Of a stretch of 64,000 nucleotides of DNA, positions 27,367 through 38,249 are shown in pieces; positions within the stretch are counted from its first letter, which is position 1, and the number at the start of each line of letters is the position of its first letter. Below the pieces are notes generated by a model, which saw only the letters and a program-made list of their open reading frames with translations, ran no database searches and was not told where the DNA came from. Source of the DNA: Escherichia coli (GTDB lineage: Bacteria; Pseudomonadota; Gammaproteobacteria; Enterobacterales; Enterobacteriaceae); assembly GCF_048403405.1 (NCBI RefSeq), contig NZ_CP183129.1. The stretch is one strand, 5' to 3'. The translations under genes and the position numbers were made by a program.

Positions 27367-29928
27367 TTACACCAGACTCTTCAAGCGATAAATCCACTCC
27401 AGCGCCTGACGCGGAGTCAGTGAATCCGGGTCGAGGTTTTCCAGTGCCTCGACCGCAGGCGAAGTTTCTTCTGGTACGGACAGCAAAGACATCTGCGTGC
27501 CATCTACCTGCGTCGCGGCGGCATTCGGCGAAATGCTCTCCAGCTCACGCAGTTTCTGCCGCGCGCGTTTGATCACCTCTTTTGGCACGCCCGCAAGGGC
27601 TGCAACCGCCAGGCCGTAGCTTTTGCTCGCCGCGCCATCCTGCACGCTGTGCATAAAGGCAATGGTGTCGCCGTGCTCCAGTGCATCGAGATGCACGTTG
27701 GCGACGCCTTCCATTTTCTCCGGTAACTGGGTCAGCTCGAAATAGTGGGTGGCAAACAACGTCAACGCTTTAATCTTATTCGCCAGATTTTCCGCGCACG
27801 CCCACGCCAGCGACAGACCATCGTAAGTGGACGTCCCGCGCCCAATCTCATCCATCAGTACCAGACTGTACTCGGTGGCGTTATGTAAAATATTGGCGGT
27901 TTCGGTCATTTCCACCATAAAGGTTGAACGCCCGGATGCCAGATCATCCGCTGCCCCTACGCGGGTAAAGATGCGATCGATAGGTCCAATCTCGACTTTT
28001 TGTGCCGGTACATAGCTGCCGATGTAGGCCATCAGCGCAATCAGTGCGGTCTGGCGCATATAGGTACTTTTACCGCCCATATTCGGACCGGTAATGATCA
28101 ACATGCGACGCTGCGGCGACAGGTTCAGCGGGTTGGCGATAAACGGCTCATTCAGCACCTGTTCAACCACCGGATGGCGGCCTTCGGTGATGCGAATACC
28201 CGGTTTATCAATAAAGGTCGGGCAGGTGTAGTTCAGGGTATAGGCCCGTTCCGCCAGGTTCACCAGCACGTCGAGTTCCGCCAGTGCGCTCGCGCTCTGT
28301 TGCAACGCTTCCAGATGCGGCAACAGCAGGTCGAACAGCTCTTCATAAAGCTGTTTTTCCAGTGCCAGTGCTTTGCCTTTTGAAGTGAGAACTTTGTCTT
28401 CGTACTCTTTTAGCTCTGGAATAATGTAGCGCTCGGCGTTTTTCAGCGTCTGGCGACGCATGTAATTGATGGGTGCCAGATGGCTTTGTCCACGGCTGAT
28501 CTGAATGTAATAACCATGAACCGCGTTAAAGCCGACTTTCAGGGTGTCCAGGCCAGTACGTTCACGCTCGCGGACTTCCAGACGCTCCAGATAATCGGTC
28601 GCGCCGTCAGCCAGCGCGCGCCACTCATCCAGCTCTTCGTTATAGCCCGGTGCGATAACACCACCGTCGCGTACCAGCACCGGCGGTGTGTCGATGATTG
28701 CTCGCTCCAGCAGATCGCGCAGCTCGGCAAACTCGCCCATTTTTTCACGCAGCGCCTGTACCGGAGCGCTATCGACATTTTCTAACTGCGCGCGCAGCTC
28801 CGGCAGTTGCTGGAAAGCGTGACGCATACGGGCCAGATCGCGTGGGCGAGCAGTTCGTAAAGCCAGACGCGCCAGAATACGTTCCAGGTCGCCGACCTGA
28901 CGCAGTACCGGCTGCAGCTCGGCGGTGAAATCCTGCAATGCGCCAATAGTTTGCTGGCGCTCAAGCAAGACGCGGGTATCGCGCACTGGCATATGCAGCC
29001 AGCGTTTCAGCATACGGCTGCCCATCGGCGTGACGGTGCAGTCGAGCACAGAAGCCAGCGTATTTTCCGCACCGCCCGCCAGGTTCTGGGTAATTTCCAG
29101 GTTACGACGCGTCGCGGCATCCATAATGATGCTGTCCTGCTCACGTTCCATGGTGATAGAACGAATATGCGGCAGGGTCGTGCGTTGAGTATCTTTCGCA
29201 TACTGCAACAGACAACCGGCAGCACAAAGTCCGCGCGGCGCGTTCTCGACGCCAAAACCGACCAGATCGCGGGTGCCAAATTGCAGATTCAACTGCTGGC
29301 GCGCGGTGTCGATTTCAAACTCCCACAGCGGGCGACGGCGCAGTCCGCGACGACCTTCAATCAGCGACATCTCGGCGAAATTTTCTGCATACAACAGCTC
29401 TGCCGGATTAGTGCGTTGCAGCTCTGCCGCCATCGTTTCGCGGTCAGCCGGTTCGCTCAGGCGAAAACGACCGGAACTGATATCCAGCGTCGCGTAGCCG
29501 AAACCTTTGCTGTCCTGCCAGATAGCCGCCAGCAGGTTATCCTGACGCTCCTGCAACAGCGCTTCATCGCTGATGGTGCCCGGCGTAACGATACGCACAA
29601 CTTTGCGCTCAACCGGACCTTTGCTGGTCGCCGGATCGCCAATTTGTTCGCAGATGGCAACGGACTCGCCCTGATTCACCAGTTTGGCGAGGTAGTTTTC
29701 CACCGCATGGTAGGGGATCCCCGCCATCGGGATCGGCTCTCCCGCCGAAGCACCGCGTTTGGTCAGTGAAATATCCAGCAGTTGCGACGCGCGTTTTGCG
29801 TCGTCATAAAACAGTTCATAAAAATCACCCATCCGGTAAAACAGCAGGATCTCGGGATGCTGGGCTTTCAGCTTGAGATATTGCTGCATCATGGGCGTAT
29901 GGGCATCGAAATTTTCTATTGCACTCAT
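27367..29928 (-). CDS. mutS: DNA mismatch repair protein MutS
   Basis: 853 aa ORF starting [18 protein letters not shown] with Walker [10 protein letters not shown]. Confidence 0.97.
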
Positions 29929-30214
29929 GGGGTTATGTCCGGTTCCCTGATATTAAATGGGGTGTGATGGTTTTTATTTTCGTTGTAATCACATAAGGCG
30001 CACATGATACCGGAGTTAATCATTTCAGGGGAAGAAGCGAACGGCGAGTTCTTGATGCTGGTTCCGGGAAAGATGCTGTTTTGCAGCTTTTGCGTGATGC
30101 TTATGAAGCAAGTACGCAAAATTGTATCGGTTGGCTAACCCTTCTTCTTTAGAGTCATAGTGCCCTTTAAGATTAAGTTGTAATATAAATGCATCTTAAT
30201 GAGATGGAGGCAGC

Positions 30215-30559
30215 ATGTCCGGCAAGCGTATCTCTCGTGAAAAACTGACGATTAAAAAAATGATCGATCTTTATCAAGCGAAATGCCCGCAGGCGTCAGC
30301 GGAGCCGGAGCATTATGAGGCGTTGTTTACTTACGCGCAAAAGCGGCTGGATAAATGTGTGTTCGGCGAAGAGAAACCAGCCTGTAAGCAGTGTCCGGTG
30401 CACTGTTACCAGCCTGCAAAGCGTGAAGAGATGAAACAGATTATGCGTTGGGCTGGGCCGCGAATGCTGTGGCGTCATCCGATCTTAACCGTGCGTCATC
30501 TCATCGATGACAAGCGTCCGGTGCCGGAGTTGCCAGAAAAATATCGTCCAAAGAAATAA
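30215..30559 (+). CDS. ygbA: Uncharacterized protein YgbA
   Basis: 114 aa cysteine-containing ORF with GGAGG RBS, divergent from mutS as in K-12. Confidence 0.7.
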   Translation: MSGKRISREKLTIKKMIDLYQAKCPQASAEPEHYEALFTYAQKRLDKCVFGEEKPACKQCPVHCYQPAKREEMKQIMRWAGPRMLWRHPILTVRHLIDDKRPVPELPEKYRPKK

Positions 30560-30563
30560 ATCT

Positions 30564-30586
30564 GCCGGAGAGCCATACTCTCCGGC
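30564..30586. terminator. Hairpin between convergent ygbA and the molbindin gene
   Basis: GCCGGAGAG / CTCTCCGGC stem with A/T-rich flanks on both sides. Confidence 0.45.
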
Positions 30587-30597
30587 AAATAAGGCGC

Positions 30598-31026
30598 TTA
30601 CGCTTTGGTGGCAATCAGGATGGCTGATGCTTTGATCAATGCAATAACGCGCGAGCCAGTGGTGAGTTTCATTTCATCCTGACTTTCATTTGTTACCACT
30701 GCCACAATTTCAAAACCCGCATCCGTTTTGATATGGACAGTGGCGTTCACTGCGCCTTCGGTGATTGTCGACACGCTGCCAGCAAACTGGTTGCGAGCAG
30801 AGAATTTCAGTCCACAGTCTTCCGTTGCCAGCGTTACCCACGGGGCTTTAATCAGGGCAATCGCTTCTTTCCCTTTCGCCAGACCCAGCGCTTGCTGGCT
30901 GCTGTGAGTCACAATTGCCACCAGCTTTGCACCACCTGCCAGCGTCAGTTCTACTTCATCATTCACAGCGCCCATTGCTACTGCGCTAACTGTTCCGGTT
31001 AATTGATTTCTTGCTGAAACTGCCAT
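30598..31026 (-). CDS. Molybdopterin/molybdate-binding protein with two TOBE (Mop) domains
   Basis: Track ORF trimmed to ATG at 31026, which has AGGAGG 4 nt upstream; 142 aa with two repeated ~70-aa halves (SARNQLTGTVS / SARNQFAGSVS). Confidence 0.75.
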   Translation of the reverse strand: MAVSARNQLTGTVSAVAMGAVNDEVELTLAGGAKLVAIVTHSSQQALGLAKGKEAIALIKAPWVTLATEDCGLKFSARNQFAGSVSTITEGAVNATVHIKTDAGFEIVAVVTNESQDEMKLTTGSRVIALIKASAILIATKA

Positions 31027-31070
31027 ACTGCCTCCTTTCATTGAATGTTGATCGAGTATAACCACATCTG

Positions 31071-33149
31071 TTAAATCAATGCCGATTTATCAATTCCCAG
31101 TCGCTTCATCCGTGACAGCAGAGTCGTGCGTTTCAGCCCCAGACGTTGCGCAGCGCCTTTAGGCCCGGCAACCACGCCGTTAGTTTCTTTCAGCACGCGA
31201 ACAATCAACTGATATTCATCTTCGCCCTCCTGGGCGACAACCGTTGCGGCAGGCGGCGTTTCAGGCTCCGGTAAAGCAATATCTGGCAATGACAGCTGCA
31301 GCACGTTGCCGCGTGTTAGCAATACCGCGCGCTCGATGACGTTTTCCAGCTCACGCACGTTGCCCGGCCATTCCATGTTGCTCAGGATGCGCAGCGTCTC
31401 GGCAGGAATGCTGTCGATATTGCGCCCCAGACGACGGGCAATTTTGAAGGTAAAGGCTTTCGCCAGCAGCGGAATATCTTCCGGACGCTCGCGTAGTGGC
31501 GGCAGGTGGATCGGGAATACATTCAGGCGGTAATAGAGATCGCTACGGAACTCACGGTCGGCGACCATTTTTTTCAGATCGCGGTTAGTCGCGGCAATTA
31601 AACGCACGTCCGTCTGAATGATTTTGTTGCTGCCGAGACGTTCAAACTCCTGTTCCTGTAATACACGCAGCAACTTCGGCTGTAACTCCAGTGGCATATC
31701 GCCCACTTCGTCGAGGAACAGGGAGCTTTTATCCGCCAGTTCAAAACGACCAATGCGCTGGGCGCTGGCACCGGTAAAAGCCCCACGCTCATGACCAAAC
31801 AGATCGCTCTCCAGCAATCCGGCAGGCATCGCCGCGCAGTTCATTTTTACCATGCGGCGATTATTACGCCCACTGAGATTATGGATCGCGCGGGCAATCA
31901 GCTCTTTACCCGTGCCAGTTTCACCGAGGATCAGCACGGTACTGTCACTTTGCGCCACCATTTCAACTTGTTTAAGCACGCTGTACATGGCTTCGCTGCG
32001 GCCAATAATCTCGCCAAATTCACTATCAACATTGTTGAGCTGCTCGGTCAGGGCGAGGTTTTCATCAACCAGCCGTTCTTTCAGACGATGGATTTCCTGA
32101 TAGGCGAGGGCGTTATCGACAGCGATTGCCACACGTTCGGCAATCTGGCGCAGTAAATTCAGATTGGTAGTGGTAAACACTTTCTCTTCGCATTGCGCCA
32201 GTTTCAGCACGCCCAGCATGGTGTCGCCAGACATCAGCGGTAACAGGCACAAGGTTTGAATCTGGTTGCCCCAGGTGTCGAACAACATGCGTTCATAGGG
32301 GGCTAAATCGTCCCGCTCGTGGAGATTAATCAGCAGCATCTCTTTGCTTTTGAACACGCGTTCGGTGAGGGTTCCGGCTTCATCGACTTCGCTCTGTTCG
32401 TGGGCGGGATGCTGTTTATCAAGATAGTGAGTGGAGTAGATGTTGAGTTTGTTTTTACGGTGGCTGCGTAAGACGATGCTGATATCGTCAATGTCGAAGT
32501 AGTAATGGATTTCTTTGGCGACTTCGCTGACCAGTTCGTCCATATCCAGGCGGGAAAGCACCGCGTTGGTAATGGCAACCAGGATGCGGAAGTTATCGCG
32601 CTCCCGGCATAACAACTCATAGTCGACATTGTTAACGACGCGGCTCTGGATTTGTTCGGTGACGACAGAAACGATCTGCGTAAATGTTTGCAGACGATTG
32701 AACTCTTTTTCGCTCCAGGGGCGATCGTCATAACGAATAAATTCACAGCCACCAAAAATATGCCCTTCCGCCGCCAGTGGCATCAGGCAATAGTGACCAA
32801 ATTTGGGGTATAGCCCACCTGCGGCCAGCTGCGGCCAGGTTTCACAAAATTCTTCGTAACTGCAATGCAGCGTATCAGGGCGCGACAAAATGCTGCGTAC
32901 CGGACCGTGTGCCAGAACAGTTTCGTCTTCATATTTAATGGGGGGGTCTTTTTCACGCGATGCGTAATAAGACGCACGTTGAGTCTGCGCTTGCCACAAC
33001 ACAATAGCCGCGTTGTCGGCGAGCGCAGAACGCTTTACCAGTTGCGAAAGAGCCTCACACAGCGAGGCCAGATCGGGCTGCTGCAATAGTGTCCGAGTGA
33101 TGTCGAACAACCCTTGTTGTCCGAGATCACTCATCGGTGTATATGACAT
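31071..33149 (-). CDS. fhlA: Formate hydrogenlyase transcriptional activator (sigma-54 enhancer-binding protein)
   Basis: Track ORF trimmed to ATG at 33149 (MSYTPMSDLGQQGLFDITR); 692 aa; AAA+ motif GETGTGKE and C-terminal HTH. Confidence 0.95.
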   Translation of the reverse strand: MSYTPMSDLGQQGLFDITRTLLQQPDLASLCEALSQLVKRSALADNAAIVLWQAQTQRASYYASREKDPPIKYEDETVLAHGPVRSILSRPDTLHCSYEEFCETWPQLAAGGLYPKFGHYCLMPLAAEGHIFGGCEFIRYDDRPWSEKEFNRLQTFTQIVSVVTEQIQSRVVNNVDYELLCRERDNFRILVAITNAVLSRLDMDELVSEVAKEIHYYFDIDDISIVLRSHRKNKLNIYSTHYLDKQHPAHEQSEVDEAGTLTERVFKSKEMLLINLHERDDLAPYERMLFDTWGNQIQTLCLLPLMSGDTMLGVLKLAQCEEKVFTTTNLNLLRQIAERVAIAVDNALAYQEIHRLKERLVDENLALTEQLNNVDSEFGEIIGRSEAMYSVLKQVEMVAQSDSTVLILGETGTGKELIARAIHNLSGRNNRRMVKMNCAAMPAGLLESDLFGHERGAFTGASAQRIGRFELADKSSLFLDEVGDMPLELQPKLLRVLQEQEFERLGSNKIIQTDVRLIAATNRDLKKMVADREFRSDLYYRLNVFPIHLPPLRERPEDIPLLAKAFTFKIARRLGRNIDSIPAETLRILSNMEWPGNVRELENVIERAVLLTRGNVLQLSLPDIALPEPETPPAATVVAQEGEDEYQLIVRVLKETNGVVAGPKGAAQRLGLKRTTLLSRMKRLGIDKSALI

Positions 33150-33222
33150 TTTGTTCTTCCAGGAAAGCACCGCAAAGCGGTGCAAAAGGTCATTGACTAA
33201 CTATAGGAGATTTAGAATTTTA

Positions 33223-37051: not shown

Positions 37052-37513
37052 ATGACTATTTGGGAAATAAGCGAGAAAGCCGATTACATCGCACAGCGGC
37101 ATCGTCGCCTACAGGACCAGTGGCACATCTACTGCAATTCGCTGGTTCAGGGGATCACGTTATCGAAAGCGCGCCTGCATCACGCCATGAGCTGCGCGCC
37201 GGACAAAGAACTCTGTTTCGTCCTTTTTGAACATTTTCGTATTTACGTCACCCTGGCGGATGGCTTTAACAGCCACACCATCGAGTATTACGTCGAAACA
37301 AAAGATGGTGAAGACAAACAGCGGATTGCGCAGGCGCAACTGAGCATTGACGGCATGATTGATGGCAAGGTCAACATCCGCGATCGCGAACAGGTTCTGG
37401 AACACTATCTCGAAAAAATCGCTGGCGTTTACGACAGCTTATACACCGCCATTGAAAACAATGTGCCGGTGAATTTAAGCCAACTGGTAAAGGGACAAAG
37501 CCCGGCAGCATGA
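37052..37513 (+). CDS. hycA: Formate hydrogenlyase regulatory protein HycA
   Basis: 153 aa ORF, first gene of the hyc operon. Confidence 0.9.
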   Translation: MTIWEISEKADYIAQRHRRLQDQWHIYCNSLVQGITLSKARLHHAMSCAPDKELCFVLFEHFRIYVTLADGFNSHTIEYYVETKDGEDKQRIAQAQLSIDGMIDGKVNIRDREQVLEHYLEKIAGVYDSLYTAIENNVPVNLSQLVKGQSPAA

Positions 37514-37637
37514 GCTGAGGCTTTGCCCGTTTTGCAGGCGTTACGCCTGTTTGGGGATGGGCGTGTCGATGAGTGTCGAAAATGACATTTCATCGGCATG
37601 TTTTCGTCAAAAATGACAATCACCTGAGGAATGCCTG

Positions 37638-38249
37638 GTGAATCGTTTTGTAATTGCTGACTCCACGCTCTGTATCGGCTGCCACACCTGTGAGGCCGCC
37701 TGTTCAGAGACGCATCGCCAGCACGGCCTGCAATCAATGCCGCGCCTGCGAGTGATGCTCAATGAAAAAGAATCTGCGCCGCAGCTCTGTCACCACTGTG
37801 AAGATGCGCCCTGTGCGGTGGTTTGCCCGGTTAACGCCATCACCCGCGTTGATGGGGCCGTGCAGTTGAATGAAAGTCTGTGCGTAAGCTGCAAACTGTG
37901 CGGCATCGCCTGCCCATTTGGCGCAATTGAATTTTCCGGCAGCCGTCCGCTGGATATTCCGGCAAACGCCAATACCCCGAAAGCGCCACCGGCACCGCCT
38001 GCTCCGGCGCGTGTCAGCACATTGCTTGACTGGGTGCCAGGTATTCGCGCGATCGCCGTCAAATGTGACCTTTGCAGTTTTGATGAACAAGGTCCGGCCT
38101 GCGTGCGGATGTGCCCGACTAAAGCCCTGCATCTGGTGGATAACACCGATATCGCCCGCGTTAGCAAACGTAAGCGTGAGCTGACCTTTAACACGGACTT
38201 TGGCGATCTCACCTTGTTTCAGCAGGCTCAAAGTGGAGAGGCTAAATGA
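37638..38249 (+). CDS. hycB: Formate hydrogenlyase subunit 2 (4Fe-4S ferredoxin-like)
   Basis: 203 aa ORF with multiple CxxCxxCxxxCP motifs; GTG start with GAGGA RBS. Confidence 0.95.
   Translation: MNRFVIADSTLCIGCHTCEAACSETHRQHGLQSMPRLRVMLNEKESAPQLCHHCEDAPCAVVCPVNAITRVDGAVQLNESLCVSCKLCGIACPFGAIEFSGSRPLDIPANANTPKAPPAPPAPARVSTLLDWVPGIRAIAVKCDLCSFDEQGPACVRMCPTKALHLVDNTDIARVSKRKRELTFNTDFGDLTLFQQAQSGEAK

Follow-up and report, generated by a model that had tools for sequence, protein, structure and literature searches.

The intergenic region upstream of ygbA in Escherichia coli raises the question of whether a binding site for the repressor NsrR is present in it and, if so, which bases constitute that site. 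The original prediction, made from the window (the whole stretch of DNA analyzed, 64,000 nucleotides in length), had pointed to a 29-base string, AAGATTAAGTTGTAATATAAATGCATCTT, as a tentative NsrR-type site framed by the pentamers AAGAT and ATCTT, with a right half resembling the NsrR half-site and a spacing thought not to fit the canonical 11-1-11 arrangement. The string is located at 30169-30197 on the + strand, as claimed. We are highly confident, however, that the operator by which the NO-sensing Rrf2-family repressor NsrR controls ygbA is the 23-mer at 30175-30197, which begins 6 bp further to the right and is a canonical 11-1-11 site. On the side of the present analysis the evidence consists of the match to known NsrR sites, of orthology to sites already published, and of where the element lies and how well it is conserved; on the side of the literature it consists of NsrR-dependent expression of ygbA and of binding in vivo in K-12.

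The element belongs to the mutS-ygbA-fhlA region of E. coli, in which it is framed by the following genes:

27367-29928, - strand: mutS
30215-30559, + strand: ygbA, the regulated gene, an open reading frame of 114 amino acids (Pfam YgbA_NO, E = 5e-41)
30598-31065, - strand: open reading frame of 155 amino acids for a TOBE-domain protein (Pfam TOBE, E = 1e-34), between ygbA and fhlA
31071-33185, - strand: fhlA

The gene is annotated as ygbA in RefSeq, including in a strain whose sequence matches the 286-bp mutS-ygbA intergenic query at 100% identity. The region downstream of ygbA departs from K-12. The 3' end of the gene (30548-30600) is unlike that of K-12, giving a protein of 114 amino acids versus 117, and similarity to K-12 drops just past the ygbA stop codon, on the border of the segment with the TOBE gene. 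This gene is not found in K-12, and the segment occurs in 1892 of the 5426 complete E. coli genomes; RefSeq annotates a TOBE domain-containing protein of 142 amino acids at 30598-31065. A hairpin with a 14-bp stem follows the ygbA stop codon (30560-30590) and was called as terminator-like on the - strand.

The E. coli-type NsrR operator is defined as two 11-bp AANATGCATTT motifs in inverted orientation, separated by a 1-bp spacer, and this arrangement is found at 30175-30197:

30175-30197, no strand assigned: NsrR operator, the 11-1-11 inverted repeat AAGTTGTAATA-T-AAATGCATCTT, identified by matrix score, register and conservation
30175-30185: left half-site
30186: spacer
30187-30197: right half-site

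The operator ends 17 nt before the ygbA ATG at 30215 (intervening bases 30198-30214) and matches 18 of the 22 consensus positions, 11 of 11 in the right half and 7 of 11 in the left. The right half, AAATGCATCTT, is an exact copy of AANATGCATTT on the - strand, which bears out the resemblance noted in the original prediction, and is the sole exact match in the 64-kb window. A lone exact half-site in 64 kb is nonetheless not rare by chance, since 0.34 are expected and 27% of randomized windows carry at least one. A search of the window with the full consensus AAGATGCATTTNAAATGCATCTT, allowing up to three mismatches, returned no match, because the ygbA site carries four. As the site is canonical in its spacing, the reason for caution given in the original prediction falls away.

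A palindromized weight matrix was therefore built from sites of other genes; leaving ygbA aside, the 27 11-1-11 sites that Mehta et al. (2015) list for CFT073 provided 25 distinct sequences. With ygbA thus excluded, 30175-30197 scored 23.6 bits and ranked first in the window, a score reached in none of 200 randomized windows (first-order Markov), the largest maximum of which was 22.5 bits. With the same matrix, the 23-mer in the register of the original prediction (start 30169) scored 10.4 bits. The second-best match in the window, AAATGACATTTCATCGGCATGTT at 37580-37602, scored 16.9 bits and was itself in the training set. It lies between hycA (37052-37513, + strand) and hycB (37638-38249, + strand), shares the 11-1-11 arrangement of the ygbA site but is placed between two co-oriented genes, and is identical to the CFT073 hycB NsrR site, which gave the second-strongest NsrR ChIP-seq peak in that strain (Mehta et al. 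2015, PMC5320621); in nitrate-grown CFT073, hycB was down-regulated rather than induced (PMC5320621).

The same register is found in the sites published for ygbA itself. The site predicted for K-12, GATGtAaTaTAAATaCATC at -37 (Rodionov et al. 2005, supplementary table, PMC1274295), is the 19-bp core of the 23-mer at 30175-30197. Alignment with the K-12 ygbA promoter, the check proposed with the original prediction, proceeded base for base and placed the K-12 site at the same position, in the same register and at the same distance from the ATG (17 nt), with 21 of 23 operator bases shared; the differences are at position 4 (A in K-12, T in the window) and position 17 (A in K-12, G in the window). 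The right half is consequently perfect in the allele of the window, whose left half is slightly weaker than that of K-12, while both alleles match 18 of 22 consensus positions. The 11-1-11 site listed for CFT073 ygbA, AAGGTGCATTTATATTACAACTT, is given on the other strand (Mehta et al. 2015, PMC5320621 Table 4); its reverse complement, AAGTTGTAATATAAATGCACCTT, falls in the same register and shares 22 of 23 bases with the window, the exception being position 20, which is T in the window and C in CFT073 and other B2 strains. The attribution of the element to NsrR is thus supported by orthology to the predicted ygbA sites of both K-12 and CFT073, and an NsrR site in the ygbA promoter is accordingly already described, with nothing novel in the element itself. 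A comparison with ytfE, whose operator AAGATGCATTTAAAATGCATCTT is the near-perfect palindrome defining the NsrR consensus (PMC5320621 Table 4), shows the same 11-1-11 arrangement and an identical right half; the left half of the ygbA site departs from it at four positions, and appears to carry a -10-like TAATAT at positions 7-12.

Control of ygbA by NsrR is reported in the literature. The gene is stated to be a known NsrR-regulated gene (Bodenmiller & Spiro 2006, as cited in PMC5320621) and its promoter to be bound in K-12 ChIP-chip experiments (Partridge et al. 2009, as cited in PMC5320621); these two studies and Karlinsey 2012 are drawn on here through the accounts of them in PMC5320621, PMC2884951 and PMC1274295. 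In nitrate-grown CFT073, ygbA was among the most highly up-regulated genes (PMC5320621), and in a Salmonella nsrR mutant its mRNA rose 31.8-fold. ChIP-seq in CFT073 gave no ygbA peak, which its authors regarded as a probable false negative (PMC5320621). The regulator gene lies outside the 64-kb window and is nearly universal in the species: of 5426 complete E. coli genomes, 5425 carry nsrR at an identity of at least 95%.

Conservation was followed first within E. coli. The promoter fragment was found in 5418 of 5426 complete genomes, and the 286-bp mutS-ygbA intergenic region is 100% identical in strains such as CFSAN061763. Three operator positions, 4 (T/A), 17 (G/A) and 20 (T/C), are variable among nine E. 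coli sequences; this amounts to 3 of 23 columns, compared with 27 of 102 columns of flanking non-coding sequence, and all of the alleles score 20-22.5 bits. Conservation inside E. coli is only weakly informative, and it is therefore the cross-species comparison that carries the argument. Two strains differ in the neighborhood of the gene: E. coli wlxctx60 carries an IS1 transposase ~200 bp upstream of ygbA, in E. coli ECL27829 the neighbor is replaced by a gene for a nuclease-related domain protein, and in both mutS is not next to ygbA while the NsrR operator and ygbA are intact.

For the cross-species comparison, 464 YgbA relatives were collected at one genome per species and the best 80 loci, almost all from Enterobacteriaceae, were kept. 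In all 80 loci the best matrix match in the 250 nt preceding ygbA stops 12-22 nt short of the ATG. These upstream matches have a median score of 19.9 bits; in 1699 control windows of 250 nt drawn from the same loci, by comparison, scores reached 8.7 bits at the 99th percentile and 14.6 bits at most, and in 79 of the 80 species loci the operator is the top match of the entire roughly 6.3-kb locus. A MAFFT alignment of the 120 nt upstream of ygbA in 81 sequences, made without the matrix, showed strong non-coding conservation in a single block, 30175-30197, in which 16 of 23 columns carry 1.2-2 bits. The palindromic positions AA/TT at the ends and G6/C18 are invariant in this alignment, and the mirror-related segments AA (30175-30176), ATGCA (30189-30193) and CTT (30195-30197) are conserved at 83-100%.

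The conserved block also appears to harbor the core promoter of ygbA, and we infer the following promoter elements, other than the Shine-Dalgarno sequence, from cross-species conservation:

30158-30163, + strand: predicted weak -35 hexamer TAGTGC (TTGnnn across species), 17 bp upstream of the -10 hexamer
30181-30186, + strand: predicted -10 hexamer TAATAT, embedded in the left half-site
30193, + strand: predicted transcription start, to within about 1 nt, 7 nt downstream of the -10 hexamer
30206-30210, + strand: Shine-Dalgarno sequence GGAGG, read from the sequence, 4 nt before the ATG

Positions 1, 2, 5 and 6 of the -10 hexamer (T, A, A and T at 30181, 30182, 30185 and 30186) are 99-100% invariant in the 81 sequences, and the hexamer takes the forms TATTAT, TAAAAT and TAGAAT elsewhere. 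The A at 30185 (operator position 11) runs contrary to the preference of NsrR, most other published sites having T at this position, which points to a second constraint acting on the left half. In the -35 region G30160 is present in 93% of the 81 sequences and T30158 and T30159 in 52-57%, while the surrounding columns carry about 0 bits; A30193 is kept in 95% of sequences, and G-rich columns mark the Shine-Dalgarno sequence across species. A generic sigma-70 scan called no promoter between mutS and ygbA, having missed the predicted ygbA promoter because its -35 element is weak. With transcription starting at 30193, the operator would cover about -18 to +5. An NsrR dimer would bind the 11-1-11 repeat at 30175-30197 and, as the predicted -10 hexamer (30181-30186) and start (about 30193) both fall within this repeat, would deny RNA polymerase access to the promoter while bound. 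Holo-NsrR is described as an Fe-S-containing Rrf2-family dimer whose reaction with NO abolishes DNA binding (PMC5320621). Nitrosylation of the Fe-S cluster by NO would thus be expected to release the repressor and allow transcription of ygbA. Occlusion of the polymerase is as firm as the predicted -10, -35 and start positions on which it depends. That the left half-site looks degenerate, and was overlooked in the original prediction, is probably due to its doubling as the -10 element.

Three other readings of the region must be weighed against an NsrR operator at 30175-30197. One would retain the wide dyad of the original prediction, AAGAT...ATCTT or, extended, TTAAGAT...ATCTTAA, centered on 30183, as a functional 11-7-11 site or as a third half-site, AAGATTAAGTT. 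The inverted-repeat search indeed returned two dyads, with centers at 30183 and 30186, the wide register appearing as a 16-nt dyad of 75% complementarity; AAGATTAAGTT matches 8 of 11 half-site consensus positions, and a proposal exists that NsrR can bind to a single 11-bp motif (Partridge 2009, as cited in PMC5320621). The existence of the second register is explained by a tandem repetition of TTAAG (TTAAGA followed directly by TTAAGT, 30167-30178), owing to which the right-hand CTTAA can pair with either copy. The wide-dyad arm, however, does not contain G6 and C7, which are informative bases of the TGCAT core, and its pentamer (30169-30173), which the original prediction took as the left arm, lies outside the site. 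This pentamer is polymorphic in E. coli, occurring as AAGAT, AAAAT or CAAAT among the nine sequences, and four of its five columns carry 0.03-0.2 bits across the 81 sequences, T30173 being moderately conserved at 0.8 bits, so that the AAGAT arm is not conserved. The pairing of AAGAT with ATCTT is moreover at chance level, because the window contains 79 inverted repeats with 5-nt arms and a 19-nt spacer where 72.5 +/- 9.2 are expected. The AAGAT-N19-ATCTT dyad thus fails on both arm conservation and excess over chance. Considering also the 10.4 bits of the 23-mer from 30169 and a 7-bp spacer that would presumably put the half-sites on different faces of the helix, a function for the wide dyad is extremely improbable.

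A second reading takes the conserved block as the bare ygbA core promoter (-10 hexamer and start) with a chance resemblance to an NsrR site and no repressor bound. Promoter constraint on part of the block is indeed indicated by the invariant hexamer TAnnAT and by the conserved TTG upstream of it, but conservation extends far beyond the -10 hexamer, to 30175-30176, 30189-30193 and 30195-30197, mirrored as an NsrR palindrome requires; a matrix derived from the sites of other genes ranks the block top in 79 of 80 species loci, and expression of ygbA is NsrR-dependent according to the literature. We consider this reading very unlikely. Least credible of the three is that the palindrome serves another regulator, such as FNR, or folds into a hairpin in the leader RNA of ygbA. 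The region can form a small hairpin (-9.4 kcal/mol), but this fold is no better than those of shuffled sequences (z = -1.0; 33 of 200 shuffles fold equally well), the predicted start at about 30193 would leave most of the palindrome untranscribed, and Rfam returned no family in the window. No FNR box (TTGAT-N4-ATCAA, up to two mismatches) overlaps 30169-30197, the nearest being at 30094-30107 and 30264-30277. Over the whole window such FNR-box-like matches number 53 versus 28.3 +/- 5.4 expected, about twofold, a number reached in none of 100 shuffles; the anaerobic hyc/hyp region lies inside the window.

Other features were seen upstream of the NsrR operator in the mutS-ygbA intergenic region. 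An open reading frame of 44 amino acids (30004-30138, + strand) goes under the label 'hypothetical protein' in many RefSeq annotations of E. coli; frameshifted in APEC 102026, unannotated in the B2 strain uk_P46212 and without a match in Pfam, it probably represents a spurious call. A perfect 8-nt inverted repeat, TTTTGCGT (30088-30095) and ACGCAAAA (30114-30121), with an 18-nt spacer and enclosed by an imperfect repeat of 13 nt, lies upstream of the ygbA promoter, and a terminator-like hairpin was called at 30075-30087 on the + strand.

The alleles of the operator leave room for some variation in its strength. Six of the eight combinations of positions 4, 17 and 20 are present in a small Escherichia sample, and these variants could conceivably tune the affinity of NsrR and so set a lineage-specific NO threshold for the derepression of ygbA; we regard this proposal as unlikely. 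If it were true, the perfect right half-site would place the allele of the window among those that bind NsrR more tightly. Beyond correct annotation the significance of the element is small: it constitutes a textbook NO-responsive switch of a small gene of the NsrR regulon, and what is gained is a correction of its coordinates to 30175-30197 from 30169-30197. The view of ygbA as a core gene of the NsrR regulon gains support from the conservation of the operator in at least 80 enterobacterial species.
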